Positions 36,994-55,521 of a stretch of DNA of 64,000 nucleotides are shown in pieces (positions within the stretch are counted from its first letter, which is position 1; every line of letters starts with the position of its first letter). Both the position numbers and the translations under genes were made by a program. This stretch comes from Candidatus Acidiferrales bacterium. GTDB lineage: Bacteria; Acidobacteriota; Terriglobia; Acidiferrales; UBA7541. The notes below the pieces were generated by a model. The model was not told the DNA's origin. It did not search any database and was given only the letters and a program-made list of their open reading frames with translations. The stretch spans positions 27,462 to 91,461 of the forward strand of contig DATNLC010000032.1 in assembly GCA_035603075.1 (NCBI GenBank), given 5' to 3'.

Positions 36994-39099
36994 GTGGCCT
37001 TTTGCCGTCGCCGCTCTATCTCCCCCTCTGCTACCCTCGACACGAGCACGACTATATCGCTACTACAATCCCTCATGGCGAGGTTCGATCCCGACATGCG
37101 AGCGTCACGCAAACGCTTTACCCGGCCAAAGAAAATGCAGGCCATTCGCCGCAAGCCAGTCGGCGACGGCACGGCAACCAGTCGTTATATGAACTCCACC
37201 GCTGGGCGTGCGGCCATGAAAGAGGCGTTGGGTGTCCAACGTCACAAACAAGCCAACATCTGCGCGGACTGCGGACGATGGTTGCCGTGGGAGAGCGCAC
37301 GATTTAAGTATCATGAGTGTCCGGATGGAGTCGAGAACGTAGCCACCCACAAAGGTAAATGTCCTGTCGATGCCAATTTGGGGGCGGTGCACGAGGGAGG
37401 ACCAACGCTGTCATCGGTGATCATTCCCGTGATTGTCGCGATTGCGTTGTGTCTGGCCGCTCCCAGTTTTATGCACGCGCAAGGCGGGTCGATTAGCGGA
37501 ATGGTAATCCAGCCGGGTCCACCGAATGGAACTGGCGGTCCTGCTCCGTCTGCTGCCGTCCGCGTGTGCCCCTACATCGGAGGCTCCGGCACTCCATGCT
37601 CACCGACCGCCAATTTATTTCTCGATCCCGGATTGACGATTGCATCACCGAATCCAGCGACATCAGATAGTTTTGGCAATTACAGTTTGTGGGTGTCTCC
37701 CGGTGCGTACTTGGTTCAAGTCGTACCGATTAATGGTTTCCTTTACAGTTATCTGGTCCAAGCTGTCGCTGGCACCGTTACCTCGGTTGGGCTTTCGATG
37801 CCATCCACGGTATTCTCCGTATCTGGCTCCCCGGTCACTGGTTCGGGTATTCTGGCTGTAACCTTTCTACCCCAATCCGCCGGACTCGTATTCGCCTCCC
37901 CAACCAACGCATTCGGGCTGCCTACATTTCGTAACTCCGCACCCGGCGATTTTGGCTCCCAGTCCGCGAACACCGTGCTCGGCAATTGCACTTCGGCCTC
38001 GGCCTCCCCCCTGTTCTGCGCACTCACTGCATCAATGATTCCATCCACGCTAAACTCCACCGCATTCTCCGGCCAAATCTCCGCTCCCTCTCTCGTACTC
38101 AACTCCGGTACCCCGCTTACCACCACCAACCAGTCCGGCACAGGGTCCATCGTTCTCACAAACAGCCCAGTCATCACCACCCCTACCATAGACTCCTGTC
38201 CGCAACTAAGTGGCGTTGGGGCTTGCAGCACGATACAGAACTATTCCATCACCGGAACCGCGCTCAACACCCTCACCAAACTTGCCAATACAGGCGGCGT
38301 TGCGGCGGTCGTCGCAGCTTCCACATCAGATACAGGTGGCGTAATCGGAGTCGTTATCGCAGGTGCCGGGACATCGGGCAGCGCCAGCGTGATCACAAGC
38401 GGAGCCGCTCAGTGTCAATTCGACGGATCAACGACCGGAGGGGACTATATCCAGATCAGTTCGACTCTGGCCGGGTACTGCCACGATACGGGAATCGCGC
38501 CACCCCTGTTTCCTTCCTCCGGGGGGCAGGTGGTAGGGAGATCCGCCGGAACCTTCGGCGGCGCAGGCGTCTATTCGATGCTGTTCGAGCCCGAGGCGCA
38601 GGCGGGTGGCGTTAGGACATTGTGCGCGAGTGGAACGCTTACCACTGTCAACGCCAACACCAATAGCGTGCAGACTATCGAAACGTGCCCGATTCCAGCG
38701 GGCGCACTCAACTCTATCGGTAAAACGTTCCGGGCGACATTCTACCTGCAAGTCGCTCCCAGCGGGACGTCCAACAGCCTCCTGTATTTCAATATGGGCG
38801 GATCACCTACGCTGGCTGGCGGCGGATTATTAGCATTCCAAGGCTCAAGCGCGGTCAGTTGGGAAATCAGTGCGCAGGCGACTTGCACGACGACCGCCAC
38901 AGGCATAAGCGGCGCAATCACCTGCGCGATCACTCCCACGGTCGTTGGGGGGACAGCGTCATATACCATCCTCAATAACGTCTACTCGGGCATTAATCTG
39001 ACGCAACCTCTGTATGCGGGGACGGCGTGTTTGTTTCTGACTGCTAGTTCGTCCAACTCGTGCGCACAATCAATGTTCAGCGTGGAGCAATTGAATTGA
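36994..39099 (+). CDS. tail-fibre-like protein with an in-frame N-terminal basic Cys/His module, an internal TM/signal-like segment, a carboxypeptidase-regulatory-like domain and fibre repeat modules
   Basis: 701-aa ORF. Residues of about 28-130 are basic with CADC...YHEC. Then comes VIIPVIVAIALCLAAPSFMHAQ, then GSISGMVIQPG...SFGNYSLWVSPGAYLVQV, then VTSVGLSMPSTVFSVSGSPVTGSGILAV. The true start is uncertain (36994, 37075 or about 37387-37417). Confidence 0.5.
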   Translation: MAFCRRRSISPSATLDTSTTISLLQSLMARFDPDMRASRKRFTRPKKMQAIRRKPVGDGTATSRYMNSTAGRAAMKEALGVQRHKQANICADCGRWLPWESARFKYHECPDGVENVATHKGKCPVDANLGAVHEGGPTLSSVIIPVIVAIALCLAAPSFMHAQGGSISGMVIQPGPPNGTGGPAPSAAVRVCPYIGGSGTPCSPTANLFLDPGLTIASPNPATSDSFGNYSLWVSPGAYLVQVVPINGFLYSYLVQAVAGTVTSVGLSMPSTVFSVSGSPVTGSGILAVTFLPQSAGLVFASPTNAFGLPTFRNSAPGDFGSQSANTVLGNCTSASASPLFCALTASMIPSTLNSTAFSGQISAPSLVLNSGTPLTTTNQSGTGSIVLTNSPVITTPTIDSCPQLSGVGACSTIQNYSITGTALNTLTKLANTGGVAAVVAASTSDTGGVIGVVIAGAGTSGSASVITSGAAQCQFDGSTTGGDYIQISSTLAGYCHDTGIAPPLFPSSGGQVVGRSAGTFGGAGVYSMLFEPEAQAGGVRTLCASGTLTTVNANTNSVQTIETCPIPAGALNSIGKTFRATFYLQVAPSGTSNSLLYFNMGGSPTLAGGGLLAFQGSSAVSWEISAQATCTTTATGISGAITCAITPTVVGGTASYTILNNVYSGINLTQPLYAGTACLFLTASSSNSCAQSMFSVEQLN

Positions 39100-42000
39100 C
39101 ACGGCGAGCGATACAAAGGTTGGCTATCGTACTGCTCGGGTTGTGCGCGATCGCATCCGCCCAGTTGACCAATGTCGCAGTCACCGCGATGACGCCGACA
39201 TCGGCCACCGTATCATGGACCTCGGTCGCGCCATCATCGACGCAGGTCTATTTCGGACTCAACGGGCATCTGAATTCCTATACGCCGCTCAACCCGGCGC
39301 TGGTCACGTCCCACACCGCCACCCTCACCGGGCTGATCGTGCCATCGCCGGGATCGATCATCTCCTATGCCGCGGTGTCCGTGGATGGATCGGGGAACAA
39401 ACTTACCTCTCCCACGCAACAGTTCGTTCTCTGCTCCTCCGGTCAATCCGGGATGGTACAGACCTCGGGCACGATCAACAACTATTACGAGTACGGCGGG
39501 ATGACATTAACATGGACCAATCAATCCGGCCAGTCCATCACGCCTACTGTCTGCGGCACGCCGATCCCCACCACGATTACCAAATCCCTCGACGGCGGCG
39601 GGTCGTTCTCGGCTCCCGTGCCTGACTCGCTGCAAATTGTCCCCTCACCGTCGCAGTGGACGGCGACTGCAAACTCCGTCGGCGGCATCGGAGTGTTTTC
39701 GATTGCACCCGTCACCATCACGGGGCCATCGTTCAACCTGTCAGCGCCGTTGCAAGTTGGCGCGATCGGCCAGACCATCCACGTCTGGTGGGATGCCGCT
39801 ACCAACACTTTCTACCCTCCGCTTCCCGGCACAGGCTCCGTCACCTCAGTCGGCCTCGGCGTCCCCGGAGGATTCCAGGTCTCAGGCTCCCCAGTCTCCG
39901 GCGCGGGCATTCTCACATGGGGTCTGCCAGTCGGTTGGGGCACGGGATCGTTATTAGTCGGCAACGGTGCCAATTCCGCGACGGTATTACAACCGGGGTC
40001 AAGTGGCACCTGCATCGTGTCTAACGGCACTGGAGTAGCGCCGACATACCAGACATGCGGTACGGGGACGATTACGGGACCAACCACGGGAGGTGGACTG
40101 GTTCTCACGGGATCGACTCTCGGCAACCAGATATGCGGCACAGGTCAGGTACAGTCTTATAACGGCACCGCATGGGTATGCAGTGGCGCGGGAAACGTAT
40201 CCACATCCACGGTGGTGAGCCAGAATATCGTGCAGCCTCCGGGGACGCAATTTTCCGCCAACAACGTAGATGGCATCCGGTATGTGGACCTGAGTCCGGG
40301 AACCTTCAACTGGTCGCAAACCATCTCCGTCGCGCTCACCGCCAACACCCCGGCAACAGTCACGATCACCCCGTGCCCGCTTGGGATATGGGGCACCGAT
40401 ACCACGTCCTATATCAAGCTCTCGAATGGATCGACCACGGAATACGATCCGTTAACGGGGTCGGGAACATGCACGGCAGGAGCAACTTCGGGGACGATTA
40501 AATTCACTCCGCAGAACACCTTTACGGCGACCTCTATCGGATCGGCGACGGCAGGTATTCAGGAAGCCCTGAACGATGCCTCCGGGCAGGCCAGCGCGGG
40601 ATCGCGGCGTGGTAATTACGCGCTGAAATTCCAGCCCACGAATCCCCCAGCGACGACCTACTACCAGATCAACGCGCCGATCACAGTTCCAGTGGGGATC
40701 GCGGATATCGACGCCTCGGGCGCGTCGTTTGACTGCGAATCGACACAAGGCGCGTGCTGGTATTTTACGGCGGGCGAGATACTATTCCACGGAGCGCGGG
40801 TCGGAACCAAAAATCAGATTGTAGCGGCGGCGATTACAGCCACCGCGTGCGCCTCAAATGTTCGTACTTACACCACCACGCTGAATCCTCCGGTTGGATC
40901 CGTCGTGGATGTGCAAGGAACCGATCTGCCGCAATACTGGGGACGGTACCGGGTGGCCACCACTTCCTCAACCTCGTTCACTGCCACTGTGATCCCCACC
41001 GGCGCGGCAGCTACGTGCTCCAATCAATCGACGACAGCGACGCCGGGCGGCGTGGCCATCGACAAGACGTTTATCGAAACCAACGCCGACAACGGGCTAC
41101 ATGTCTCGGACATTTATTACGATCTTCCCGGCTGGGATCCGGGGTATTTGCTGACTTCGCTCATTGTGGTGGATAACGATCAGGATTTCCGGGCGGATAG
41201 AGTTTACACATCCTTCGATGGCTCGTCTCCGAATTCCTGCACCGCGATTTACTGTCCCCAGGTTTTCTACGCGCCGGGCGGTACGGCAGGGAATCCGCTG
41301 GGCAGCATCCACAAGTCCAACTTAAGCGTGAGCGGCGCGGCGAACGGAGTCAAATGGCTGGCGGGTGAAACCATTTCTATCGGGGATGCGACGATCATAC
41401 AGGGCGCTCCGCAGTATTCGGTGATGGCGGGGCAGATGCGCGGCGGCAGCGGCGGCGTGGCTACTTCCGGCCTGTACAACGAAATCGGCGGCGCATTCAA
41501 TCCGCTCTATGTAGCGGCGGGACTGACCACTGCGCAATCGCAGGCGGAAGCGGGCGTCAACGTAGTCGGCGGATTTCTCGATTTGCACACCCAGGTCGGA
41601 GGATTCTCGCCGGGAATTACGGGATCGCTGCCGACCTTCGCCACCGGCGGTTCGACGTTATACCTCTACTCTGCGGTGATCTGCGACGGCACCAATTGCA
41701 CGCTGCCACTACCCTTCGGGCAGGCGGCTCCCGCAAGCAGCGCCTCCTACACCATTGCGTGGCCGCACTACGGATCGCAGACCGGCTCGACCGTCACTTA
41801 CTGGATTTTGAAGACCAGCGGCATTGGCGGAATTTTCAATTTCCCTTTCCCTTATGGGACAGGAAACTGGTCGATTGCGTCTTCGGCCTTTGCCCAATGT
41901 TCCGGGCTGATCTGCACTACCACGGATTCCACATCGACGACGCTGCAACCTTACACCGTGCTGAGTTTTCCGACGCTGATTCCTTATCTTCCGGGCTGGC

Positions 42001-45000
42001 CGGGGTCGGTTGTGTTAGGCAACGGCGCGACGATGTACTCCGATTCGGGGGTTCCCTCAAGCGTAGTGGTGACTTCCAATAACTCTCCGGCAGTCTATGC
42101 AACGCGGCTGGATCAACTGACGCCGGGCGTCTATGCCAGCTCGCTATCGAATACGACGCTGGTGTCCGGGCCGGGGGGAACGACGTTCAGCACTGGCGGC
42201 ACCATGCTGCAAAACGGCGTTAACTCCTCGAACGGGAATGGATCGATGGCTCCGAACCTTAAAGGACGGTTGATCTTCGAGCCGAATTCGAGTTTGACCG
42301 ATCCACTGAACTCGACGCACGTCATCACGATTAACGATTCCAATCCTGCGAAGACACTGGCCGATCCCTCGCATCGTCCAGTCAACGACGTTAACGACGT
42401 ATACATTGGACTGGATCAGGGGGCGGCGGCAACCAACGCTCAGGCAGGGTTGAGTTTCGGCGCACCCATGGCCATCTCTAACTACATCGGCAACGTGGGC
42501 GATGGAGTGAGTTGGGGAGAACGGCTGACCGCCACGTCGAAGACGTTTCAGGTCGCACAAACCAATGTGCTGGGAAAGTTGTACGTCAACGGAATCACCA
42601 TCGGACCGGCGTTTCCGATACAACTTGTGCCACCATCCACCGATCTCTTCACCGGCTCGGGCGGTCTGGGCGGCAATTGGACGATATTCTGCGGAACCTG
42701 GACCAAAGCCAGCGGGCAGGCGACAGCCACGGCCACGTGCAGCAACAGTTACACGGCGGCGGCGTATACGGGTGGCGGAACCGTGGCCGCGAATCAGTTC
42801 AGCAGCGTGAAATTGGCAGCCTTTAACACTCCGGGATCGCTGATGGGGGCGGCGGTGCGGGTTTCGACTTCGGCGGAGACTTACGATGCCTGTCTGGCAT
42901 TAGGCGGAGGGTCGGTGTTGCAGGAAATGGTGGCTGGAACCGGCACCAATATCGGAACCCCCTCCTCGGGGCCGGCAGTGCCGATTGGCGATACGCTGGA
43001 GACGGTCGTTTTAGGCAACCAGTTGACTTGTTACGACAATGGCGTGCCCATCATTACAGGAACGTCCTCGATTTCTTCCGGCTATCCGGGCATCGCGGGC
43101 GGAGACAACGTAGGGTTCGTCTCGAATTTCCAAGGCGGGCCTCTGAATTATGACGTGAATGGAACTCTTATTTTCCCGGCATATGCCTCGGCGGGTTATC
43201 AATGCGCGCACTTCGATCCCACTGGGACCCTTTTACCGACCGGCTCGGATTGCGGATCAGGCGGAGGCGGCGGAGGAGTAACCAGTGTGGCTATGACCGT
43301 TCCGTCATGGTTATCGGTTGCGGGATCGCCAATCGTCACTTCGGGCACTCTGGCGGTGACTGCGGCTACGGGACAGACCGCGCACAAAGTCATCGGTACG
43401 GGAACGGGATCGTCGTTTTCTCCAGTCAGTCTGGTTACGGGGGATCTGCCGTTCACATACTCCGGTAACACCACTGAATTGGGAACCGTAAGTGGCGCGC
43501 TCACCCCCACACACACAATTGTCTCTGATGCCAGCGGCAATCTGATCGATTCTGGAACCACGGGCGGCTCGGGGACGGTTACGTCGGTCGCGATGACGGT
43601 GCCTAGTTGGCTAGCAGTGACAGGAAGCCCAGTGACGGGTGCGGGTACACTTGCGGTCGCAGCCGCAACCGGTCAAACATCCCATAAGGTGATCGGGACC
43701 GGCACTGGAACATCCTTCGGTGTGGTCAGCCTCGGGACTGCCGATCTGCCATTCACGTATAGCGGAAACACAACCGAACTGGCGACTGCCACAGGTACTC
43801 TCACCAACGGTCATTGTGTATCTATCGATGCCAACGGAAACTTTGTAGATTCCGGAGTGCTCGGGTGCAGTGGCAGCGGCGGCGGGGGAGTGACATCGGT
43901 GGGATTGGCTGCGCCGACCGGGTTTGGTATCACGGGTAGTCCCGTCACCACATCAGGAACACTTACGCTTGCTATGCCAAGCGGATGGACCACCGGAGAC
44001 ATGTTGCTGGGTAATGGCTCCAACTCCGTCACCCGCCTCGCTATCGGAGCCAGCGGCACATCTCTTCAATCGAACGGCACCACCGCGTCGTGGCAGACGG
44101 CGGGCACGGTGTCGAGTGTGGCTCAGACTTTTACCGGCGGACTGATATCGGTCGGCGGCTCTCCGATCACCTCTACGGGTACTCTCGCGCTTACAGTCGC
44201 GGGCACATCGGGCGGCATTCCATATTTCTCGTCATCGTCTGCGTGGGCGTCATCGGCAGCCCTGACCGCTAATCTGCCTGTGATCGGCGGCGGCGCTGGC
44301 TCGGCCCCTACCGTGGGATCGGTCACGGGCAATACCACTAAATTCGCGACCAGCACGGGTGCGCTCACCAATGGCCATTGCGTGTCGATTGACGCAAGCG
44401 GCAATTTCGTAGACTCCGGTGTGTCGGGATGCGGCGGCGGCAGCACAGGCAGCATCACCGTCAATAGCGGATCGGCGCTCACGTATCCGGTTAATTTCGC
44501 CAATTCCGCTGCGGTCACCGGGTTGCAGATCGTGTTTACGAATCCATCGGGATCGAATGTCGCGGCGGCGATCAGCGGCGCGCTTACCAATGCTGGGCTA
44601 GTCAATTCCACAGTTACCCTAAATGGACAGTCGATCAGTCTCGGCGCGTCCGGTAACGTCAATGCCGGAAATACCATTCATTCCATCGCGCTGAACGAAG
44701 GCAACGGGAATCAAATCGGCGCGACCGCGACTGGCACATCGGGACAACCATTATTGTCCGGCGGATCGGGAGCCGATCCCGCGTATGGACCGCTCAATAT
44801 CAGCAATTCGTCCAACATCACGGGGCTGGTGCCGACCGCTAATCTGCCGCTGACCGTGATGTATACCAACGTCGCCAACACGATCTCATCCGGGGATAAA
44901 CTGACCGTGACTCCGAGCAGCACCACCTCGGGATTCAATCTCGGATCGGTCACTGTGGACCCGTCGAGTCTGGCTGGCGGCGACATATGGTTCCGGACGG

Positions 45001-46403
45001 ACTTGAATCAGATATCGTACTACGATGGCTCCAATACCCAACTGGTGATGGATCAGAATACACCCGTTTCGCTGGCACAACTCAACAACTCGGTGCCTGC
45101 CGTGGGCATGATCCCGTATGTGAATGTCGGAGCGACTGCGTTGTCGTGGCTGACCGATCCCGCGAACAATTGTTATCTGGCGGCGGGGAGTAGTGGTCCG
45201 TTTTGGGATTCCAATCTTTGTTACAACACGGGCACGGGAACGCTGACTGTCACGGGCGCGGGTGGGATCACGACTGCCGCGCTCCACCTAACGGGGCCAG
45301 CGTACATCACTACGACGATTCCCGGAGGAGCGCCTGCTTTACCGGGAGCAAGCCAGTCCGCATTGGCCGTAAACACCGACGGGCACTTCTATGAATCCGC
45401 CAGCAACGGTGCATTCTCCAGATTTCTGGTTGCCAGTCTGCTCACGGGAAACACTACAAATGTGGTGAGTGGCGCGAGCACAATCGCCACCGCTCCCAAC
45501 AACGATCTGATCTGCGGGGATGGGTCGGGAAACGTAAAGGACTGCGGGTCGGCTTCCGCCATGCTGCCGTTGGCTACCGGACATCTATACGCAGGCGTAT
45601 TCGGAGCCGCAGCGGATGCGGGTACGGATTTTACCCTCAATACCAGTACGCACACATTCGCGGCGGGATCGACGGGTATATTCACTCTGGCTGCCGCCTC
45701 TGCCGCGACTGGATTCAAGGTCCCCACGGCGACTGGTGCCGCGCCGACCGCCGATGGGCAGGTAGCGTTCAACTCCACCACTCACTATCTCGTGTTCGGT
45801 TCCAATGGATCGACCAGAACGGCTGCCAGCGCGGCATCGAGTGTCGCATCGGCTCCGGCTAACGACGTAATCACGGCTGATGGAAGCGGCAACGTTCAGG
45901 ACTCGGGCACTCTCCTATCAAGTCTGGCCCCACTGGCGTCTCCCGCGCTGACGGGTACTCCCACTGCGCCAACTCCGAGCACCGGAGACAATTCCACGAC
46001 AGTTTCTACTACAGCTTTTGTCAAGAATCAGAATTACGCTTTACAGAGCAAAGTGGGGGCGGTATTCCAAGTCACCGCCAGCTCCATCACGGGTATCGTG
46101 GGCGCTGATTTCGCCGGGTCGATGCGAGCCGATCACACACTGACCGTACAAAACATCACGGCGTCGGCGGCAGCTCTGGCGACCTGCACCACAAATCCAA
46201 CGATCACATTCCTGGAATGCGGCACTTCGGCGACATGCGCGAGTCCAACCACCATAGGCACGGTTACAGTCACGGCGGCCAACGCCATCGTCAACGGCAC
46301 AGTCAGCAGCACCACCGTCAACTCCGGCGATTACGTGGTTGGGGAGGTTACCGCCGGAGCGTGCGCTACGTTATCCAATCTGAGCGCGGCAATGGCTTAC
46401 TAG
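39060..46403 (+). CDS. giant tail fibre protein (2447 aa) with a signal-like N-terminus, an FN3-like domain and repeated fibre modules
   Basis: The N-terminus after a possible TTG at 39096 is (M)TRRAIQRLAIVLLGLCAIASAQ. It has an FN3-like stretch (TNVAVTAMTPTSATVSWTSVAPSSTQVYFG), several VTSV..P....V.GSP.T..GTL modules and the fibre motif SPALTGTPTAPTPSTGDNSTTVSTTAFV near the C-terminus. Confidence 0.7.
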   Translation: MRTINVQRGAIELTRRAIQRLAIVLLGLCAIASAQLTNVAVTAMTPTSATVSWTSVAPSSTQVYFGLNGHLNSYTPLNPALVTSHTATLTGLIVPSPGSIISYAAVSVDGSGNKLTSPTQQFVLCSSGQSGMVQTSGTINNYYEYGGMTLTWTNQSGQSITPTVCGTPIPTTITKSLDGGGSFSAPVPDSLQIVPSPSQWTATANSVGGIGVFSIAPVTITGPSFNLSAPLQVGAIGQTIHVWWDAATNTFYPPLPGTGSVTSVGLGVPGGFQVSGSPVSGAGILTWGLPVGWGTGSLLVGNGANSATVLQPGSSGTCIVSNGTGVAPTYQTCGTGTITGPTTGGGLVLTGSTLGNQICGTGQVQSYNGTAWVCSGAGNVSTSTVVSQNIVQPPGTQFSANNVDGIRYVDLSPGTFNWSQTISVALTANTPATVTITPCPLGIWGTDTTSYIKLSNGSTTEYDPLTGSGTCTAGATSGTIKFTPQNTFTATSIGSATAGIQEALNDASGQASAGSRRGNYALKFQPTNPPATTYYQINAPITVPVGIADIDASGASFDCESTQGACWYFTAGEILFHGARVGTKNQIVAAAITATACASNVRTYTTTLNPPVGSVVDVQGTDLPQYWGRYRVATTSSTSFTATVIPTGAAATCSNQSTTATPGGVAIDKTFIETNADNGLHVSDIYYDLPGWDPGYLLTSLIVVDNDQDFRADRVYTSFDGSSPNSCTAIYCPQVFYAPGGTAGNPLGSIHKSNLSVSGAANGVKWLAGETISIGDATIIQGAPQYSVMAGQMRGGSGGVATSGLYNEIGGAFNPLYVAAGLTTAQSQAEAGVNVVGGFLDLHTQVGGFSPGITGSLPTFATGGSTLYLYSAVICDGTNCTLPLPFGQAAPASSASYTIAWPHYGSQTGSTVTYWILKTSGIGGIFNFPFPYGTGNWSIASSAFAQCSGLICTTTDSTSTTLQPYTVLSFPTLIPYLPGWPGSVVLGNGATMYSDSGVPSSVVVTSNNSPAVYATRLDQLTPGVYASSLSNTTLVSGPGGTTFSTGGTMLQNGVNSSNGNGSMAPNLKGRLIFEPNSSLTDPLNSTHVITINDSNPAKTLADPSHRPVNDVNDVYIGLDQGAAATNAQAGLSFGAPMAISNYIGNVGDGVSWGERLTATSKTFQVAQTNVLGKLYVNGITIGPAFPIQLVPPSTDLFTGSGGLGGNWTIFCGTWTKASGQATATATCSNSYTAAAYTGGGTVAANQFSSVKLAAFNTPGSLMGAAVRVSTSAETYDACLALGGGSVLQEMVAGTGTNIGTPSSGPAVPIGDTLETVVLGNQLTCYDNGVPIITGTSSISSGYPGIAGGDNVGFVSNFQGGPLNYDVNGTLIFPAYASAGYQCAHFDPTGTLLPTGSDCGSGGGGGGVTSVAMTVPSWLSVAGSPIVTSGTLAVTAATGQTAHKVIGTGTGSSFSPVSLVTGDLPFTYSGNTTELGTVSGALTPTHTIVSDASGNLIDSGTTGGSGTVTSVAMTVPSWLAVTGSPVTGAGTLAVAAATGQTSHKVIGTGTGTSFGVVSLGTADLPFTYSGNTTELATATGTLTNGHCVSIDANGNFVDSGVLGCSGSGGGGVTSVGLAAPTGFGITGSPVTTSGTLTLAMPSGWTTGDMLLGNGSNSVTRLAIGASGTSLQSNGTTASWQTAGTVSSVAQTFTGGLISVGGSPITSTGTLALTVAGTSGGIPYFSSSSAWASSAALTANLPVIGGGAGSAPTVGSVTGNTTKFATSTGALTNGHCVSIDASGNFVDSGVSGCGGGSTGSITVNSGSALTYPVNFANSAAVTGLQIVFTNPSGSNVAAAISGALTNAGLVNSTVTLNGQSISLGASGNVNAGNTIHSIALNEGNGNQIGATATGTSGQPLLSGGSGADPAYGPLNISNSSNITGLVPTANLPLTVMYTNVANTISSGDKLTVTPSSTTSGFNLGSVTVDPSSLAGGDIWFRTDLNQISYYDGSNTQLVMDQNTPVSLAQLNNSVPAVGMIPYVNVGATALSWLTDPANNCYLAAGSSGPFWDSNLCYNTGTGTLTVTGAGGITTAALHLTGPAYITTTIPGGAPALPGASQSALAVNTDGHFYESASNGAFSRFLVASLLTGNTTNVVSGASTIATAPNNDLICGDGSGNVKDCGSASAMLPLATGHLYAGVFGAAADAGTDFTLNTSTHTFAAGSTGIFTLAAASAATGFKVPTATGAAPTADGQVAFNSTTHYLVFGSNGSTRTAASAASSVASAPANDVITADGSGNVQDSGTLLSSLAPLASPALTGTPTAPTPSTGDNSTTVSTTAFVKNQNYALQSKVGAVFQVTASSITGIVGADFAGSMRADHTLTVQNITASAAALATCTTNPTITFLECGTSATCASPTTIGTVTVTAANAIVNGTVSSTTVNSGDYVVGEVTAGACATLSNLSAAMAY
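43278..43877 (+). repeat. tandem 100-aa coding module duplicated inside the giant fibre gene, conserved at protein level and recoded at DNA level
   Basis: Copy 1 starts at 43278 and copy 2 at 43578 (300-nt period). Both read VTSVAMTVPSWL.V.GSP...GTLAV.AATGQT.HKVIGTGTG.SF..VSL.T.DLPFTYSGNTTEL. More diverged copies lie at about 43890, at about 39838 and in gene 36994-39099. Confidence 0.8.
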
Positions 46404-46417
46404 TACAGTGGATCGTA

Positions 46418-49400
46418 ATGCGAAAATGTCTACTCACCCTCGCTTTAGCCGGGATTTGCACTGTGTCTCAGGCGCAGACTCTATGGAACGGCATCCTCGA
46501 CCCATCGCGCGCGATAGTATGGAATCCCGGCGCGCCGCTGATTAACGAAACCCGGACCCAGTGCGGCTCTACTATCGCGGCCTATACTGGAACCGCTGCG
46601 ACGATCAACAACGCGATTGCCGCGTGCGGCGCACACCAATATGTTCTTCTCGGTGCTGGCACATTCACTCTTTCATCGGGTATCAACTTCTTCAAAACCG
46701 GAACCACACCCAACAGTTATGTGACTCTCCGTGGTCAAGGCGCGAACTCGACGTTTATCGTCTTCTCGGGTTCGATCTCCAATTCCAATTACTGCAACGG
46801 TCACGATGTCTGCGCGGCGGGGGGAGACAACAACTACGCGAACGGCGGCGCGATTAACAGCGCAAATTGGCTGGGGAGTTGTATCACACTCCCATGCACA
46901 TCCGGGACCTACGCCAAAAACGCAGCCTATGTGTTATTGAGCGCCGACACCAATCTCTCCAACGGTGCACCACTCATCCTCGACCAGATCGACAATCAGA
47001 CCGACAACGGCAACCTCTACGTCGGGTGCGAGATTTACGATCAATCCAATCCCTGCTACAACGGTACCTCGACCAGCGGATTCCAGCGCGGGGATGGATC
47101 GCTCACCACTGTTCGCGGCCAGCAGCAAATCGTCAACGTCAACGGCACGATAACGGGCACGGGACCGTACACGGTACCGATCTCCCCCACCATTTACGCC
47201 GCGAACTGGAATTCCGCTCAATCTCCCGGCGCGTGGTGGTCGTCTATCCCTGTATACGGCGATGCAGTCGAAGACCTGTCGCTCGACCACACCAACAACG
47301 GGTCCACTGCGACGGATGGTATTATTTTCTACAACTGCACCGGATGCTGGGCGAAGGGTATCCGCAGCATCCGCAATAGTTCCACCTCCGCCAATTGGGG
47401 ACACGTGGATCTGGCATCGTGCAACAAATGCACCGTCCGGGATTCCTACTTTTGGGGATTCGCGTGCGGCACATCGGGAGGCAGTTGCGACACCTACGGC
47501 ATCCCGGCGCAGACCGCATCGGATGATCTGGTGGAGAATAATATTTCCCAACTCCCCGGCGAGACGCAGTTCTACAATTCCGACTGCGAGGGGTGCGCGG
47601 CGACATACAATTACGCCGCTGGCACGGGATTCAGTTCCGCGGGCTCCAACTGGCTGGGTGCGCCGAACCAGTTCCACTCGATAGTCCTGTTCGCGCTGGC
47701 CGAGGGGAATATCACCGCCGCCTACTATGGCGATAATTTCCACGGCTGCCACGATCTCAACACGTTTTTCCGCAACCGCTGGGACGGCTATCAGACCAAT
47801 CAAGGATACGTGACCAGTTCCGAAACCGTTCCTCTGCGCATGAACCCCTGTGATCGGTATGAGAATGGAATATTCAACGTCATTGGCAGCCAGTTGCTGC
47901 ACCAGCTCTACTCCTCGTCGCCGCCGGGCACCAACCTGTATACGTCGGTAGTCGGTCTCGGCACCTACCCCGAAGTAGGTCTGGCATGCGGGCCATCGAG
48001 TGGATTGATCGCGTGTGCGGATTCACTGGTCGCCACCACCCGGTATCTGTGGGGTAATTACGCGGAATGCAGATCGACCTCCACGTCGGCAGAATGTAAC
48101 GCCCAGAGTTTCAACTCCGCAGAAGTCCCCAGCAGCGGCCTCCCCGGTGGACTGTATCAAAACGCGGTACCATCCACGCACACTGCGCCACCGTCATTCC
48201 TGTATTCCTCGCAGCCATCGTGGTGGCCCGCGGGAAAAGTGTGGCCACCTGTGCATCCCGAAAACACCACAGGCGGGAACGCCGGCCAGTGCTACAAAAC
48301 ATCCACGGGCATCGCGCCATGCACCGACACGGGAGTCACATTTTGCTCCTCGGAAGCCACCAATGCCAGTCAATGCGGTAGCGGGGAGTCGTTTGCCCTG
48401 TCCGCTGGTGGCCGCGTCACCTCCAACCCCGCGATGGACTGCTACCTCAACACAATGAGCGGAGCGGCGAACGGCACCGGAGGCCCGTATGCGTTTGACA
48501 GGCTAACGTGTTACCCGGCAGCGAGCACTGCACCGGTAGTGTCGTTGTCCGCAACCACCCTGACATTCGGCCCACAGGCATCGGGGACTACCTCTGCTGG
48601 GCAGTCCATCACGGTCACCAACACGGGAACGGCCACCCTCAACATCTCATCCATCGCGATCGCCAATGTTCTGCCCACGAGCACGCAATTCGCGAACACC
48701 ACCACATGTGGATCGACATTAACCGCCTCGTCCAGTTGCACGATCACGGTCACATTCCACCCGACATATTTCGCACCCAAGACCGCTACTCTCGTCCTGA
48801 CCACAAACGCAACCTCCAGCCCGAACAACATCTCGCTCACCGGGATCGGTGCCCCGGCTGGCAGCAACATGGTACTCTATCAATCCGGCACCCATCCAGC
48901 GCAGCAAATCAACGCCTACGCTCCCCCGATCAATTCCAGTGTCAGCACATACTCCCACCTGATCGGCTCGGGGACGGGGATTCTGAATCTATTCACGCCG
49001 GGACAGTACCTGACTGGCGTCACTTGGTTCCCTAACGTAGGCTGCACGGCGTCCAACTGCACGGGAGCCAACGGCACCTACCTCGATCACGTCGGCACGT
49101 CTTCCATCGCGGGCGGTGGATGCCCGAATATCGTGTTCTCGGGGTCATCCCCGCAGGACATCGACAATGTGGTCGATAAAGTGGCCGCGCTCGGATACTG
49201 GAACAATTTCATCCCCGTCAATACCAGCTACGGCGCGGGCGGCGGGACAGGCAACACCGCGACTCCGGGATATGAGTTCACTCAGGATTGGGCGGATAAT
49301 CTCGACACCGATTGCGCGCACCAGAGCGGGGTGTTGTCCCGACAGAATAGCGGCTACTATCTTCCCGGTGACTACATCCTGTTCGGCGGACAGTACTGGC

Positions 49401-52400
49401 AGATGACCAAACTGACGTGCAGTAACGCGACTGGCACCGATACCCATTACGATGCCTGTAAGACTGCCACGTCTCCACCCGCATGTCTGCTCACTCCCAG
49501 TTCGCCATGCGTAGATGGAACCGGATCGTGCTCGACCGGGAATGCGGCATGCTGGACGCTCACTCCCAGCAGCGGCTTACACGCTCCTCCACAGGATGGC
49601 TGGTGCGATTCGACGTACCCCGGCAGTTTGTCGCTTCCTTGCTACTCGCTCGTGGTCAACGGCACCGCATCGATCAACGGCAGCGGAGTAGCGACGATTA
49701 CGGTAAGCAGCATTCCGACATACGCCAACGGTAACACGGGATTCATATCCGGAGTCAGCGGCGTCAACGGCTCCAATTTCAATTGCGGGTCGGCAACCAG
49801 CACCACCGCTACCATCCAGTCCATCAACCAGTCCACGAATCAGGTCTCCTATACATGCTCCCCGGCGCTCACTACGACTGCATCCACAACGCTCACCGGA
49901 GGCCAGATCAGCGCCGCTCATTCCCTCAACATCAATACCGCGCCACTACCCTTGCTGCAAGCCACATTCCCGATCCCGTATGAGTTGCCGAACCGGGTGA
50001 GACTGCAATCCCTGTGGGCGTCGATGGATACGCATTACAAAAACTCCATCGGGTATATCCGGATGGGACTCAGTAAGGGCGGCGAGTCCTCTCAAGACAA
50101 CAGCAACCTATGGCCGTGGTATACCGCGAACCAGTATCTGAGCTACGAAAAAGTCATGTATGCGTTTGAGTCCGGAGCGGGTGGCGGGACGGACTTTGCC
50201 TGCGTGGGGAATCTGAATACCAACCCGAATCAGGAAGCGGTCTATATTTATGGCGCGAATTGCGGCGGGGACAACAACGCTCTCAGCACCGATCACGCTT
50301 ATACGCTCGGATGTTATGCATCGACTCCAGCCCCCGCGTGGTGTGGGACGGTCACGTATAACAGTGGCGTCCCCGCCGACGGGTCACTTCTCCACGGTGG
50401 CAACTGGGCGGAGTTGTTCAAGACCTACAACACGACCACACCGAACGGTGACTATCCAACACAAACCATCCAGACCACGAATGCATCGAATCCGGGTTCG
50501 ACACCGGGGAATTGCTCAGTAAACACTTGTGCCAATGGCACCTGCACCGTGCCTAGTGGATCGCAGCCGATAACCGGATCGCTATCCATCGACACCGGAT
50601 GCACCAATACCACTCTCACCGGCGGAGGACCGTTCCCGGCACCCAATGGTTACCCCGGCGATCTCCCACTGATCCAGCAGTATCTGGCGACCAACTTAGA
50701 GGCTTACTTTTGCGACATCGCGCTGATGCTGGACCCGAATTACCCGCCGAGTGGGTGCTCATCGTATTCCCAGACCACATACGCGCCTTTGTATAAGAGT
50801 GCAGCCTCGACGTTTCTGACGCAATCCACCACTGTGCCTGTATTCACCAGCGCGGCGACCGCGTTCTTTACGATCAATGTGTTTAACACGTTTACGGTCG
50901 CGGCTACAGGGACGCCAACGCCGGCGTTTACGATTATTGGCGGGACGCTGCCGTCGGGAGTCACATTTGTAGACAATGGCACGGGAAACGCAACATTGAG
51001 TGGCACACCGACAACGGTGGCGGTAGTGACGTTGACTATTCACGCGGCCAACTCAGCCGGATCGGTCAACCAGACATTCACGCTCAATATCATCCCCGGT
51101 GGATCGTGTTTTGGGTGCAGTGGGGTGGGAACGGGGCAGTTTGTAATCAGTGGCGCGGCCAGCAATTTTCCCACTACTCCCGCCGATGACATGTATTGCG
51201 GCACGTCGGGGACTCCGACATGGGGCGTGAGTGATGGGCCTGCGACATTGCCGACTGATTGCCTGAATACCAATCCGGCCAACTCCCCCGCGACCGGATC
51301 GGTGGTGAATGTGACCACGGCAGGACAATTAACGACCGCGCTGGCAGCGGCATCCTGTGGCCAACAGATCACTCTCGCCGCCGGATCGTCGTTCTCGGGG
51401 AATTTCACCGCACCCGCCCTCAGTTGCCCATCGAATAACTGGCTGATTATTCAGTCCTCGGCGGTGTCGTCTCTCCCCGTCTACAGCGCGCGTTATTCGA
51501 CTACTTACGAAGGCGCGACCGTGTATCTACCGCAATTCAGTCCGTGCTACTCGGGGGTAACCTCTCTTACTGGCCGTCCGACCATGCACTGCCCGAGCAC
51601 TCCGGGCACCTACACGGCACAGATCATCACGCCCAATTCGACCGCCGCGCTCACACTGTCCGCCAACACATCCAATGTCCGATTTATCGGGATCGAGTTC
51701 ACCCGCACCGCGTCCACTGGTCTCACCACTCAACTTATCGGCATGGGCGGGGTGGGGGGGATTTCGCACGTCATCTTCGACCGGGTATGGTGCCACGGTG
51801 ACGAGAATCAGGACGAGACCACCAGATGTTTCAGCGCGACACAAACCGACCACGTAGCGGTCATAGACAGTTATTTCAACGATTTCTATTGCATCTCAGT
51901 CTCGGGCGCGTGTGTCGATTCCCAAACTCTCATCACTGGCCTCGACGCAGCCAACACCACGGGCGAGAACACGCTCAAAGTGGTCAACAACTACCTTGAA
52001 GCTGCCGGGGAGACAATGGAGTTCGGCGGCGGTGCGGCGACCGCGGTCCCTTACAATTTCGAGATCCGGCTCAATTTGATGACGAAACCGTTGCAGTGGA
52101 ATCCATCCGATCCGAGTTATAACGGCGGCATCGGCGGGCATGCCTTGGTTGTCAAAAACCTATACGAAATGAAAACGGGGAATCTAACGTTATTCGAGGG
52201 GAATCAGTTATTCAACGTCTGGGCAGGATTCACGCAAACCGGTACGGCTATCCCAATCGGTGCCAAGAACCAAAGCGGCGGCTGTTCCGTGTGCGAGATC
52301 ACCAACCTGGTCATGCGGTATTCGACGGTTAACACGGCGGGCTTGATGACGGATATCAGCATCGGTCCCAGCGACACCAACGCGATGGCGGCGGCGCAAA

Positions 52401-53005
52401 ACGCTATCTCGGTCCACGATCTGATCGGTGACAATCTGGGGTACTCGACGTGCAACTCGTGCTCGGTGACCAATCCCATGATCGGGTTGACGGAAAGCGA
52501 CCAGTACATCACATCGACCGCGCAAGCCGAGCACAATGTCACCGTCAATCACGTCACGATGGTGGGGGCGAACGGAGCCACGGCATTGCAGGGAGCGTTG
52601 GGATTGTCGGGGATGTTGCAATCGACCGGGTTCCAGATGTACGGGATGACGTTTACGAACAACGTGTTCGTGACACAGGACTTCGGCACTCAGAACGTGC
52701 TCGGGAACGGCAGCGTTAACTGCGCTTATGGAGTCACAGCGGGCGCGGCGGCGATCAACGCGTGCTGGACCGGATCGACGTTTGGCGGGAATTGCATTAT
52801 CGGGACGCCGACGAGAACGTGGCCGGGGGTGAATAATGTGACCAGTATCGCAACACAATCCAGCGTTTATACAAGTTGGAATAACGGCGAGAACGGCACG
52901 TATACTATCGCGGCTGGAGCCTGCAAGGGGATAGGCACTGACACTCTCGATCCGGGAGCGAATGTGAGTGAAGTAGCGAGCGTAATCGCGGGCAACCATC
53001 CATAG
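46418..53005 (+). CDS. giant multidomain spike/depolymerase-like protein (2195 aa) with a signal peptide, two beta-helix regions and Ig-like domains
   Basis: ATG 46418 gives MRKCLLTLALAGICTVSQAQ. Beta-helix-like rungs appear (IIFYNCTGCWAKGIRSIRNSS..HVDLASCNKCTVRDSYFWGF). An Ig-like module follows (LSATTLTFGPQASGTTSAGQSITVTNTGTATLNISSI). A He_PIG-like motif is present (GGTLPSGVTFVDNGTGNATLSGTPT). A second beta-helix region includes VRFIGIEFTR...VIFDRVWCHGD...VVNNYLEAAGETMEFGGG. Confidence 0.65.
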   Translation: MRKCLLTLALAGICTVSQAQTLWNGILDPSRAIVWNPGAPLINETRTQCGSTIAAYTGTAATINNAIAACGAHQYVLLGAGTFTLSSGINFFKTGTTPNSYVTLRGQGANSTFIVFSGSISNSNYCNGHDVCAAGGDNNYANGGAINSANWLGSCITLPCTSGTYAKNAAYVLLSADTNLSNGAPLILDQIDNQTDNGNLYVGCEIYDQSNPCYNGTSTSGFQRGDGSLTTVRGQQQIVNVNGTITGTGPYTVPISPTIYAANWNSAQSPGAWWSSIPVYGDAVEDLSLDHTNNGSTATDGIIFYNCTGCWAKGIRSIRNSSTSANWGHVDLASCNKCTVRDSYFWGFACGTSGGSCDTYGIPAQTASDDLVENNISQLPGETQFYNSDCEGCAATYNYAAGTGFSSAGSNWLGAPNQFHSIVLFALAEGNITAAYYGDNFHGCHDLNTFFRNRWDGYQTNQGYVTSSETVPLRMNPCDRYENGIFNVIGSQLLHQLYSSSPPGTNLYTSVVGLGTYPEVGLACGPSSGLIACADSLVATTRYLWGNYAECRSTSTSAECNAQSFNSAEVPSSGLPGGLYQNAVPSTHTAPPSFLYSSQPSWWPAGKVWPPVHPENTTGGNAGQCYKTSTGIAPCTDTGVTFCSSEATNASQCGSGESFALSAGGRVTSNPAMDCYLNTMSGAANGTGGPYAFDRLTCYPAASTAPVVSLSATTLTFGPQASGTTSAGQSITVTNTGTATLNISSIAIANVLPTSTQFANTTTCGSTLTASSSCTITVTFHPTYFAPKTATLVLTTNATSSPNNISLTGIGAPAGSNMVLYQSGTHPAQQINAYAPPINSSVSTYSHLIGSGTGILNLFTPGQYLTGVTWFPNVGCTASNCTGANGTYLDHVGTSSIAGGGCPNIVFSGSSPQDIDNVVDKVAALGYWNNFIPVNTSYGAGGGTGNTATPGYEFTQDWADNLDTDCAHQSGVLSRQNSGYYLPGDYILFGGQYWQMTKLTCSNATGTDTHYDACKTATSPPACLLTPSSPCVDGTGSCSTGNAACWTLTPSSGLHAPPQDGWCDSTYPGSLSLPCYSLVVNGTASINGSGVATITVSSIPTYANGNTGFISGVSGVNGSNFNCGSATSTTATIQSINQSTNQVSYTCSPALTTTASTTLTGGQISAAHSLNINTAPLPLLQATFPIPYELPNRVRLQSLWASMDTHYKNSIGYIRMGLSKGGESSQDNSNLWPWYTANQYLSYEKVMYAFESGAGGGTDFACVGNLNTNPNQEAVYIYGANCGGDNNALSTDHAYTLGCYASTPAPAWCGTVTYNSGVPADGSLLHGGNWAELFKTYNTTTPNGDYPTQTIQTTNASNPGSTPGNCSVNTCANGTCTVPSGSQPITGSLSIDTGCTNTTLTGGGPFPAPNGYPGDLPLIQQYLATNLEAYFCDIALMLDPNYPPSGCSSYSQTTYAPLYKSAASTFLTQSTTVPVFTSAATAFFTINVFNTFTVAATGTPTPAFTIIGGTLPSGVTFVDNGTGNATLSGTPTTVAVVTLTIHAANSAGSVNQTFTLNIIPGGSCFGCSGVGTGQFVISGAASNFPTTPADDMYCGTSGTPTWGVSDGPATLPTDCLNTNPANSPATGSVVNVTTAGQLTTALAAASCGQQITLAAGSSFSGNFTAPALSCPSNNWLIIQSSAVSSLPVYSARYSTTYEGATVYLPQFSPCYSGVTSLTGRPTMHCPSTPGTYTAQIITPNSTAALTLSANTSNVRFIGIEFTRTASTGLTTQLIGMGGVGGISHVIFDRVWCHGDENQDETTRCFSATQTDHVAVIDSYFNDFYCISVSGACVDSQTLITGLDAANTTGENTLKVVNNYLEAAGETMEFGGGAATAVPYNFEIRLNLMTKPLQWNPSDPSYNGGIGGHALVVKNLYEMKTGNLTLFEGNQLFNVWAGFTQTGTAIPIGAKNQSGGCSVCEITNLVMRYSTVNTAGLMTDISIGPSDTNAMAAAQNAISVHDLIGDNLGYSTCNSCSVTNPMIGLTESDQYITSTAQAEHNVTVNHVTMVGANGATALQGALGLSGMLQSTGFQMYGMTFTNNVFVTQDFGTQNVLGNGSVNCAYGVTAGAAAINACWTGSTFGGNCIIGTPTRTWPGVNNVTSIATQSSVYTSWNNGENGTYTIAAGACKGIGTDTLDPGANVSEVASVIAGNHP

Positions 53006-53060
53006 GAGATTGTTGACGCGGGTGGTACGATATCAGTGAAAGGAAAGGACCCCTCCGATA

Positions 53061-53471
53061 ATGAAACGACTGATCTGTACACTGGCACTGTTGTCGATCT
53101 GGCTCGCGTTGCCGACCGTATCCGCTGCCGCGCAATCGACGGTTGCAGGAACGGGCCAATTCACATGGACCGTGACTGGATTCGGCGAGACCGGAACTGG
53201 AACCTATACATGTCAGAGTGGTCCCGGTACTCTGTTTCCGCCCTGCCAGATCGTCGATGACACCACGCATGTACCGCCGCAGTTGGGTGTGGCGTTCACG
53301 ATGACGATTCCAACGGTTGGGCCGAAGACGAGCGTCACATGCACGCTAACAAGTGGAACATTGCCATCGTGGATGACGCTGAAATCGAGCGGGATTAACT
53401 GTGTGTTGACGGGGACGCCGACTACGACCGGGGCGGGTACGAGTATCGCATTGAGCTTCACTGGAAGTTAA
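53061..53471 (+). CDS. small exported Ig-like (He_PIG-like) protein
   Basis: The N-terminus is MKRLICTLALLSIWLALPTVSAAAQ. The C-terminal motif is SGTLPSWMTLKSSGINCVLTGTPTTTGAGT. Confidence 0.5.
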   Translation: MKRLICTLALLSIWLALPTVSAAAQSTVAGTGQFTWTVTGFGETGTGTYTCQSGPGTLFPPCQIVDDTTHVPPQLGVAFTMTIPTVGPKTSVTCTLTSGTLPSWMTLKSSGINCVLTGTPTTTGAGTSIALSFTGS

Positions 53472-53765
53472 ATGCGGCGACTGCTCATTTTCGGGTGCTT
53501 GATGCTCTGTGGTTGTGCCGCCAAAACCCCTGCGGCTGCTCCAGCGATAGCCGCGCCGGACATTGGCATCATCCAGCCACCGCCGATGCAAGTGCTCGAA
53601 GTTTCGCTCGGCGAGCGGGTCAATCGCGCGCTATATCGGGCAGGCAATTGCCGTATCACCGCTGGTACATTTCCCAAGGGATTAAAACTATCCCGCCAGA
53701 GTGGATCGTGCTGGGCATCCGGCGTGGCGTTACAAGCGGGAGTGTTTCGGTTTATCGCAAACTGA
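53472..53765 (+). CDS. small lipoprotein with a degenerate He_PIG-like motif
   Basis: MRRLLIFGCLMLCGCAAKT has a lipobox-like L-C-G-C. Further in, it reads AGTFPKGLKLSRQSGSCWASGVALQAGVF. Confidence 0.5.
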   Translation: MRRLLIFGCLMLCGCAAKTPAAAPAIAAPDIGIIQPPPMQVLEVSLGERVNRALYRAGNCRITAGTFPKGLKLSRQSGSCWASGVALQAGVFRFIAN

Positions 53766-54740: not shown

Positions 54741-55228
54741 ACTGGTCTCTCGCATGGCACTGGCTCTGGTTTTTTATCGGTGCCCTTACCTACATGGCGC
54801 AGCGCGCGTATTACGGCGTGCAGGGACCGCGTCCGGTTGCGACCAGTTATCCGAACTACGTTTACCGCTGCTGGGGACCATTGCTGTTCCGGTTTGTCGT
54901 TGACAGCGCCTTTTACTGGGCAACGTTTACTCCGATTCTGCTGGCAGGAATGTTGCACGCCCTCGGTTGGGAGACATTCGCGTCGGAAGTGGAAGGCGTG
55001 ACTCAGTACGGCGTATTTGCGCTGGCGTTCGGGCTGGTAATCGATGTAGCGGTGGATTTCAGCGTCACCAAGATACCGCTGCTGAAAGATATCTGGCCGC
55101 AAATGCCGCCTGCGTTACCTCAACCCGCCGTCGTACAGTCCGCGATTGTCGAAACTACACAAACCACCAAAGTGACAGAATTAGCGACGAAGACTACCAT
55201 GATCCCGGACCCGAAGGAGTCCAAATAA
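54737..55228 (+). CDS. integral membrane protein (3-4 TM), holin candidate
   Basis: 163 aa with an ATGA overlap to the previous gene. Hydrophobic helices are followed by a polar C-terminal tail. Confidence 0.45.
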   Translation: MNWSLAWHWLWFFIGALTYMAQRAYYGVQGPRPVATSYPNYVYRCWGPLLFRFVVDSAFYWATFTPILLAGMLHALGWETFASEVEGVTQYGVFALAFGLVIDVAVDFSVTKIPLLKDIWPQMPPALPQPAVVQSAIVETTQTTKVTELATKTTMIPDPKESK

Positions 55229-55473: not shown

Positions 55474-55521
55474 CGAGCCGGCAATACGCTGTCCGGATTA
55501 TGGAAAATGTAATAAAATTCG

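Follow-up and report, generated by a model that had tools for sequence, protein, structure and literature searches.

This report concerns the window, a 64,000-nucleotide (nt) stretch of contig DATNLC010000032.1 (positions 27,462 to 91,461 of the forward strand) from a Candidatus Acidiferrales assembly, in which the fibre and spike genes of a tailed phage carry predicted signal peptides of the general secretory (Sec) pathway. Signals of this type were predicted at the N-termini of eight window genes, five in 37417-53765 and three in 13613-18951. The favoured reading, with a probability of about 0.6, is that the fibres and spikes would be exported through the Sec pathway of the host and matured by disulfide formation in the periplasm, either to join phage particles or to be set free at lysis.

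Signals were detected with a simple self-written heuristic for n-, h- and c-regions. At pseudo-N-termini of window proteins the heuristic was positive in 34 of 14,233 cases (0.24%), whereas at true N-termini it flagged seven of the eight fibre-type genes and none of the 35 other window genes; against such a background a chance origin of the signals is excluded. A Vibrio podophage with a related terminase served as a control: one of its 38 coding sequences was flagged, a small protein, and none of its six large tail proteins. An earlier examination of the window from its letters alone (hereafter the sequence-only reading) had described export-like signals on five consecutive products, fibres or spikes and their small neighbours, in 36994-53765. 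All five quoted N-terminal or internal sequences were found at the positions given for them, and the range itself proved too narrow, as the three genes of 13613-18951 are also signal-bearing.

Seven of the eight signal-bearing window genes have MR, MK or RR in their n-regions, the exception being the gene at 37417. The uncharged run is 10-15 residues long in six of them and 19-21 in the other two, in which the c-region is included. The residues before the predicted cut, marked here and below by a slash, read ASA/Q, SQA/Q, AAA/Q, MHA/Q, SLA/Q and LWA/Q. Glutamine (Gln) occupies the predicted +1 position in about 30 of the 36 phage proteins from all loci, a count to which the choice of cut sites contributed by partly favouring [AGS]Q. 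Gln at +1 (A/QT) is frequent in cellular homologues too (set compared: the window, loci L001, L016, L017, L019, L025 and L026, proteins P0004-P0016 and P0050-P0068). An A-Q type cleavage context had been ascribed to all five products first noticed; it holds for the signal peptidase I type proteins, with predicted cuts before Gln, but not for the 97-amino-acid (aa) protein, where the putative cut falls before CAAK. The best explanation of these N-termini is that they are functional Sec signals, of signal peptidase I type on seven proteins and of lipoprotein type on one. Among the window signals, that of the 2435-aa protein is the only one with residues resembling a twin-arginine translocation (Tat) signal. 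The Tat option was rejected there: T-R-R-A-I-Q is all that is present, the signal is 22 aa long and its h-region is strongly hydrophobic, so that the segment does not qualify as a Tat signal, and a protein with 36 cysteines (Cys) requiring oxidative folding would be an unlikely Tat cargo.

The window genes are co-oriented and tightly packed, and Shine-Dalgarno (SD) sequences together with stop/start overlaps back the signal-keeping starts. Better starts further downstream, which the sequence-only reading had allowed for as a way of removing the hydrophobic segments, are disfavoured, since they would leave coding-like gaps unexplained and break conservation. The open reading frame (ORF) described as 2447 aa from GTG 39060 most likely begins at TTG 39096, where a TTGA overlaps the previous stop and GGAG lies 8 nt upstream, and the product from that codon begins M-TRRAIQRLAIVLLGLCAIASA/Q. 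The spike starts at ATG 46418, 15 nt past the preceding stop, and ATG is also the start codon of the 136-aa and 97-aa genes, of which the latter directly adjoins the stop of the former.

The fifth product was initially taken as a fibre-like ORF of 701 aa (37075-39099) with an internal hydrophobic segment. This ORF comprises two genes in one frame, a Zn-ribbon-like ORF running into a fibre gene, and the segment is the N-terminal signal of the latter, as the orthologues in two further loci indicate. In L016 a separate 90-aa basic Zn-ribbon gene (14882-15154), preceded by a KTSC gene, stops after HKGKCA, and the fibre gene (locus 14882-16853) has its own ATG and the signal MRLRAHLLILIALIWGAPVFTHA/QGGSIS. 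In L025 (2409-3779) the Zn-ribbon gene is absent, stops lie upstream, and the fibre ATG opens the signal MRRQLGLLILLTSAASLAWG/QGASIS; the n-regions of the two orthologues are MRLRAH and MRRQ. In the window the shared SD (GAGGGAGGACCA) precedes an ACG where the relatives have ATG, the Zn-ribbon stop is missing and the frame is continuous, and the 560-aa fibre probably starts at GTG 37417. If a Zn-ribbon/fibre fusion product is made, it would lie in the membrane as a type II protein, the Zn-ribbon facing the cytoplasm.

Counted after removal of the predicted signal, the Cys residues of the eight window proteins are all even in number (4, 6, 26, 14, 36, 74, 4 and 2), and in four of these proteins an odd total becomes even only through that removal. 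Over all loci the mature count is even in 34 of 36 proteins (binomial p=9.7e-9), and in 20 of 22 when obvious orthologues are collapsed (p=6e-5), compared with 81 even and 91 odd counts among control non-signal ORFs of the same loci (Fisher p=5e-8). Cys density is 2.4% in signal-bearing proteins against 1.0% in other window proteins. An even-Cys bias is a known signature of disulfide-bonded exported proteins; the counts suggest that the predicted mature products fold with disulfide bonds outside the cytoplasm, and they lend support to the predicted cleavage sites. Just upstream of the fibre cluster, large proteins free of Cys are encoded in the window (31901-35779; 574 and 713 aa) and in L026 (2356-6335; 298, 512 and 512 aa), in sharp contrast to the adjoining Cys-rich signal-bearing proteins.

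Sequence comparison identifies the window as that of a tailed phage, or a prophage, with an acidobacterial host, an assignment that follows from its head and packaging matches in PHROG (Table 1), from an identical protein of a metagenome-assembled genome (MAG) and from capsid kinship. The protein 100% identical to the 2195-aa product is listed at NCBI as 'MAG TPA: choice-of-anchor D domain-containing protein [Candidatus Acidoferrales bacterium]', encoded on a contig of about 102.7 kb, and the closest isolates by capsid protein, at 25% identity, are Tunturi_1 and Tunturi_2, podophages of Tunturiibacter (Acidobacteriota; Microbiome 2025, PMC11924767). All large window genes are on the + strand, GC content is 0.52-0.60, and a search for tRNA genes in the window found none.

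Relatives of the window were collected from IMG/VR through the capsid protein (73-93% identity), and L002-L013 and L016 repeat its layout. The first signal-bearing gene, at 13613, lies directly after the conserved tail genes, and in every relative long enough (L002, L013, L009, L004 and L012) the syntenic gene opens with a signal of unrelated sequence; the genes compared, that of the window included, code for 313-1701 aa. A QQ(S)GGGG run following the predicted cut is found in the window (13670-13720) and at L002 15907, L013 15281, L009 15735 and L004 14310, and not in L012; in five of these six the glycine run is the only conserved part of the first fibre gene, the remainder differing. In L016 a single signal-bearing protein of 639 aa stands in for the giants.

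Signals were also predicted on other contigs. A 62-kilobase (kb) JGI contig, L017, has them on proteins of 922, 2063, 2551 and 130 aa, the last with a He_PIG domain and orthologous to the 136-aa window protein, and its gene order matches that of the window: giants, He_PIG protein, a small hydrophobic protein (membrane-spanning by eye) and a Tlde1-domain protein. Three consecutive signal-bearing genes are present in L025. In L026, a 63-kb contig with a P22-type Phage_stabilise tail gene, five signal-bearing genes (771, 450, 1586, 1765 and 189 aa) lie directly downstream of Cys-free, signal-less proteins that are presumed to be ejection proteins.

Cultured phages have the signals as well. In the podovirus Tunturi_1 they are predicted on gp12, gp13, gp14 ('tail spike protein'), gp16 and gp17 ('virion structural protein'), for example MKKFIQLALLFILPAAASA/QT, and in the unrelated siphovirus Tunturi_4 on gp113, gp114 and, from an upstream ATG, gp111 ('tail fiber protein'), gp15 and gp16, which belong to the tail core, having none. 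The gp111 start on record (L019 30076-33171; PP885687 80076-83171), at 80433, is apparently too far downstream; translation from the upstream ATG supplies a signal and an N-terminus that matches the one of gp113 at 54% identity.

Across lineages the signal sequence diverges, and what persists is the n/h/c form and the A-x-A/Q context; even a 98%-identical fibre, P0049, keeps the cut site and has a different signal tail. The comparison of homologous fibres for the same N-termini, suggested by the sequence-only reading, accordingly gave a divided answer, with form and cut context shared and the signal sequence not. Recurring in the window relatives, L017, L025, L026, Tunturi_1 and Tunturi_4, the predicted signal trait follows the host phylum over at least four phage architectures. 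Searches of viral contigs with a 320-aa protein and with the N-terminus of the 560-aa protein, and of species genomes with the capsid protein, returned no loci.

By their domain matches, the signal-bearing proteins are modules of fibres or depolymerases, some of which also occur in secreted proteins of cells, in agreement with the tail-fibre and beta-helix depolymerase-like regions first suspected from the sequence. The 2435-aa protein has three modules. Module A (aa 7-350) comprises the signal and a weakly matched FN3-like domain, about 330 aa, and is common to L025-652, P0056, P0059 and P0060, which otherwise differ; its AlphaFold model, with a predicted local distance difference test score (pLDDT) of 36, was unusable. 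Module B (aa 300-1170) is common to many signal-bearing proteins, some of them on chromosomal contigs of 0.56-0.60 Mb. The third module is the C-terminal block, whose 400 aa, searched as a segment, gave six 'tail fiber protein' matches in PHROG (best 8e-7), whereas the uncut full-length giants gave none; among GenBank phages the fibre C-terminus had no tblastn match.

In the spike the signal is followed directly by a beta-helix depolymerase-like module of about 700 aa, then by a choice-of-anchor-D/ASH Ig domain and a further C-terminal region, and homologues have the same N-terminal module directly behind signals of their own. The AlphaFold model (pLDDT 58, predicted template-modelling score 0.65) shows a signal helix (residues 2-15) and then a beta-helix, and the top Foldseek matches of the module in the Protein Data Bank (PDB) are tailspike depolymerases, namely Klebsiella K1 lyase (E 2e-8), LKA1 gp49 and AP22 gp54, at template-modelling (TM) scores of only 0.2-0.28. 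Among signal-bearing cellular homologues, P0005 lies between LepA, DnaG and RpoD genes on a 0.9-Mb contig, and P0012 in a polysaccharide cluster with glycosyltransferases, Wzy_C and a pyruvyl transferase. PDB sequence searches with both giants, the 342-aa tail protein and an 1143-aa protein gave nothing useful.

All-against-all protein comparison was made with phmmer, since composition-adjusted BLASTP was incomplete, and it revealed mosaic fibres. The 1111-aa window protein corresponds to residues 160-1092 of the 2063-aa signal-bearing protein of L017, residues 195-442 of the 456-aa protein to the N-terminal domain (10-277) of the signal-bearing 2551-aa giant of the same contig, and the 2195-aa spike to the rest of that giant; the 560-aa fibre, with a conserved N-terminus of about 230 aa and a variable C-terminus, shares only its first 230 aa with L016-536. 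The 456-aa protein has no clear signal and misfits the otherwise clean split between exported and cytoplasmic products; its place among the exported proteins is doubtful. The spike and P0003 illustrate the difference between the search methods: their homology is plain by eye and scores 1053 bits in HMMER, and only 33 bits in BLASTP with compositional adjustment. Composition-biased giant fibres are readily missed by BLAST-based pipelines.

Table 1. Genes and regions of the window discussed in the text (window positions; a slash marks the predicted cut)
Feature	Coordinates	Strand	Remarks
Large terminase	563-2821	+	PHROG match
Portal	4528-6402	+	PHROG match
Major head protein	8291-9265	+	PHROG match, E 7.6e-25
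Conserved tail protein, 342 aa	11078-12106		No signal; weak similarity to N-termini of tail/tail-fibre PHROGs; kept in all relatives
First signal-bearing fibre gene, 313 aa	13613-14554	+	Signal MRARLLVVALILASTLSLA/QQSGGGGG (13613-13669); 4 mature Cys
Signal-bearing protein, 267 aa	14557-15360	+	MRRILQLALMVLLALSASA/Q; 6 mature Cys
Signal-bearing fibre or spike, 1111 aa	15616-18951	+	MRKWLVIAVLLCARLWA/QSAPAQ; 27 Cys in total, 26 mature
Cys-rich protein, 456 aa	18954-20324	+	16 Cys; no clear signal
Tail adaptor	20927-22033	+	Pfam SU10_adaptor (E 3.1e-7); no signal; tail core
Second, weaker SU10-type adaptor copy	22372-23544		Pfam
Basic Zn-ribbon-like ORF	37075-37416	+	Runs in frame into the fibre gene
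Signal-bearing fibre, 560 aa	37417-39099	+	(M)IIPVIVAIALCLAAPSFMHA/QGGSIS (signal 37417-37479); 15 Cys in total, 14 mature
Tail fibre, 2435 aa	39096-46403	+	Signal MTRRAIQRLAIVLLGLCAIASA/Q (39096-39161), then FN3-like domain; 37 Cys, 36 mature
Spike, 2195 aa	46418-53005	+	Signal MRKCLLTLALAGICTVSQA/Q (46418-46474); 74 mature Cys
Predicted exported He_PIG Ig-like protein, 136 aa	53061-53471	+	MKRLICTLALLSIWLALPTVSAAA/Q; 4 mature Cys
Lipoprotein-like protein, 97 aa	53472-53765	+	MRRLLIFGCLMLCG/CAAK; two further Cys past the putative lipidated Cys
Presumed lysis region	54737-58270	+	Membrane proteins 54737-55228 and 55563-56231; Tlde1-domain protein 57899-58270

In the proposed mechanism, fibres, spikes and the small Ig-like accessory proteins would be synthesised late, pass through the Sec translocon of the host and be cut just before Gln. 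They would then fold in the periplasm, where their many Cys would pair into disulfide bonds, while terminase, portal, capsid, adaptors, the presumed nozzle and ejection proteins, all without signals, would assemble the capsid and tail core in the cytoplasm. The exported set, built in part from modules of secreted enzymes found in exopolysaccharide clusters, would bind and degrade surface polysaccharide. It would meet the particles only once the lysis system, presumably encoded in 54737-58270, breaches the inner membrane, at which point the fibres would either dock on the particles, as a two-compartment assembly, or leave as free depolymerases. A full two-compartment version of this reading can be put forward tentatively: DNA-filled capsids with bare tails would form in the cytoplasm, and all fibres, spikes and Ig-like helpers would be exported by Sec, trimmed to (pyro)Gln, disulfide-bonded and docked at lysis.

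A different use of the same export would leave the virion out altogether, the proteins acting only as free enzymes or surface remodellers. Exopolysaccharide, O-antigen or receptors would be stripped or modified on the infected cell from the periplasm outward, and on its neighbours after lysis, with the release of progeny or a block on superinfection or re-adsorption as the benefit; the 97-aa lipoprotein would act in the manner of T5 Llp, and the receptor binder would be a signal-less core protein such as the 342-aa one. The spike fits such a role in that its N-terminal module is common to cellular secreted proteins, one of them within a polysaccharide gene cluster, and free depolymerases are known (PMC6116005). 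This alternative is nevertheless considered rather unlikely. The C-terminus of the 2435-aa protein is a genuine tail-fibre module, and in the structural module of four genome architectures the signal-bearing genes stand where fibres or tailspikes are encoded. Conserved N-termini go with swapped C-termini, and gp111 and gp113, paralogues in Tunturi_4, have their N-termini in common, a pattern that suggests docking to one shared partner. In the P22-type gene order the tailspike lies downstream of the ejection proteins, the very place of the L026 signal-bearing genes relative to the presumed ejection proteins. There is also no other variable candidate for host recognition, the conserved 342-aa protein being unlike the variable element expected to set host range.

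Export itself would be dispensed with if the hydrophobic N-termini were relics of captured host secreted genes, or uncleaved helices serving trimerisation, anchoring or docking, and assembly took place in the cytoplasm, as is the rule in every studied tailed phage. The modules common to cellular secreted proteins make co-capture of signals conceivable, but unused signals would be expected to decay, whereas over 36 proteins and at least four phage lineages the sequences diverge and yet keep both the n/h/c organisation and, ahead of Gln, the -3/-1 site. The h-regions, mostly of 10-15 residues, are too short for stable anchors, the Cys count turns even only without the signal, the small accessory proteins are signal-bearing too, and a hydrophobic signal on a cytoplasmic protein of 2000 aa would be directed to Sec or the signal recognition particle in any case. 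Uncleaved helices, one of the options raised by the sequence-only reading, are disfavoured on these grounds, and the whole explanation has a poor chance of being right. Least probable is an artefact of wrong starts, of a chimeric MAG contig or of host genes beside a prophage: the contig is labelled as a MAG, several starts are GTG or TTG and the 701-aa ORF was indeed mis-delimited, but the same gene order occurs on independent contigs and on circular genomes of purified cultured phages, and the packing, the SD sequences and overlaps and the even GC content (0.55-0.60) also argue against it.

Several points weigh against export followed by attachment to particles. The 342-aa tail protein, conserved in all relatives and weakly matching the N-termini of tail and tail-fibre PHROGs, could be the true fibre or receptor binder. 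No particle-anchor domain was detected at the mature N-termini, which have no Pfam, PHROG or PDB match to known ones, and the spike beta-helix begins right after the signal, as in cellular homologues, an arrangement that fits free enzymes at least as well. Even Cys counts could also come from disulfides formed after lysis. The paper describing the Tunturi phages mentions neither signal peptides nor mass spectrometry, and no virion proteomics is reported in it (PMC11924767). Two of the signals are themselves open to doubt. The one at GTG 37417 lacks a basic n-region, is 16 nt from its SD and is the weakest of the eight. The 97-aa protein had been called lipobox-like; its L-C-G/C departs from the canonical [LVI][ASTVI][GAS]C by a Cys at -2, and a signal peptidase I type cut, CAA/K, is also possible. 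An o-spanin role of this protein, considered on account of its proline-rich IIQPPPMQ, was set aside, as by eye its C-terminus looks like the He_PIG domain found in the 136-aa protein, and no gene next to it encodes an i-spanin partner.

Textbook accounts known to us have tailed-phage virions, fibres included, assembled entirely in the cytoplasm, and a full-text search of the accessible literature for tail-fibre signal peptides or periplasmic fibre maturation in tailed phages found no precedent. The sequence-only reading rightly recognised export-type signals on fibre and spike genes of a tailed phage and rightly saw them at odds with ordinary cytoplasmic assembly; of the three options that it offered without a preference, separate export as enzymes and unconventional maturation are both plausible. 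A comparable fate is established in Inoviridae, where the receptor binder pIII has a cleavable Sec signal and disulfide-bonded domains that fold in the periplasm, and where coat proteins such as pVIII use Sec as well; those phages, however, extrude at the membrane with all coat proteins membrane-inserted, unlike a tailed double-stranded DNA phage with terminase, portal and an HK97-type packaging module. With podophage tailspikes (P22 gp9, LKA1 gp49, AP22 gp54, Klebsiella K1 lyase) the window proteins share the right-handed beta-helix as best match, at the low TM scores given above, the position in the structural module and swappable C-termini. In vitro, tail-less heads of P22 accept added tailspikes, which makes late attachment physically plausible. 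The known tailspikes differ in having no signal peptide, few Cys, a dedicated N-terminal particle-binding domain and cytoplasmic folding. Like the lipoproteins of the T5 Llp/Cor type, the 97-aa product is a small predicted exported lipoprotein encoded next to fibre genes, but it is He_PIG-like and its lipobox is non-canonical.

Late proteins of tailed phages that use Sec or signal peptidases have been described (PMC6116005), including the signal-peptide endolysin Lys44 of Oenococcus phage fOg44, the signal-anchor-release endolysins P1 Lyz and phage 21 R, the T4 RI antiholin and o-spanin lipoproteins. They likewise reach the envelope by host Sec before lysis, but they are small lysis effectors, whereas here about 7,000 fibre and spike residues per genome are concerned and the core is cytoplasmic. 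Porphyromonas gingivalis prophages contain five signal-bearing 'Q-rule' genes without an assigned function, which have been interpreted as altering the surface of the host (Matrishin et al. 2023, PMC10367356). The Q-rule, Gln at +1 giving an N-terminal pyroglutamate, has been described as specific to Bacteroidetes, in a paper that leaves Acidobacteria unmentioned in its main text (Bochtler et al. 2018, PMC5837995). Both sets of phage genes copy the signal peptidase I context of the host with Gln at +1; those of P. gingivalis belong to Bacteroidota and are not fibres.

In several lineages of acidobacterial phages, the proteins for host recognition resemble obligate Sec substrates whose disulfide chemistry would take place in the periplasm. 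If this is true, one of two things follows: the virion is assembled in part on each side of the inner membrane, or these phages, abundant in soil, release large enzymes active on polysaccharides while they infect the cell. In the two-compartment version, Caudoviricetes would have their first example of virion parts maturing outside the cytoplasm, and fibres hardened by disulfides may then be an adaptation for persisting in acidic soil over long periods. The "glycoside hydrolase" auxiliary genes of soil viruses may have to be interpreted differently, and receptor-binding proteins of these phages may need periplasmic or oxidising expression in order to fold. Annotation pipelines drop or mis-start such genes, gp111 of Tunturi_4 being an apparent example. 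Since Tunturi_1 and Tunturi_4 are in culture, the question is directly testable.

Some neighbouring genes deserve mention. Lysis is the presumed role of the membrane proteins in 54737-56231 and of the Tlde1-domain protein downstream of the fibre genes. A protein with this L,D-transpeptidase-like domain occupies the same place in L017 (19794-20165); no classical endolysin family was detected, and the Tlde1-domain protein may be the endolysin. Between the two adaptor-like genes of the tail module, 22039-22359 encodes a 106-aa protein with 8 Cys and DnaJ-type CxxCxGxG zinc-finger repeats, which may be an assembly chaperone. Outside the structural module, a gene on the minus strand (59994-60404) has a signal- or lipoprotein-like N-terminus (MRRLLPPLLMLLSLSLLTNAC/A) and may be a superinfection-exclusion or moron gene.

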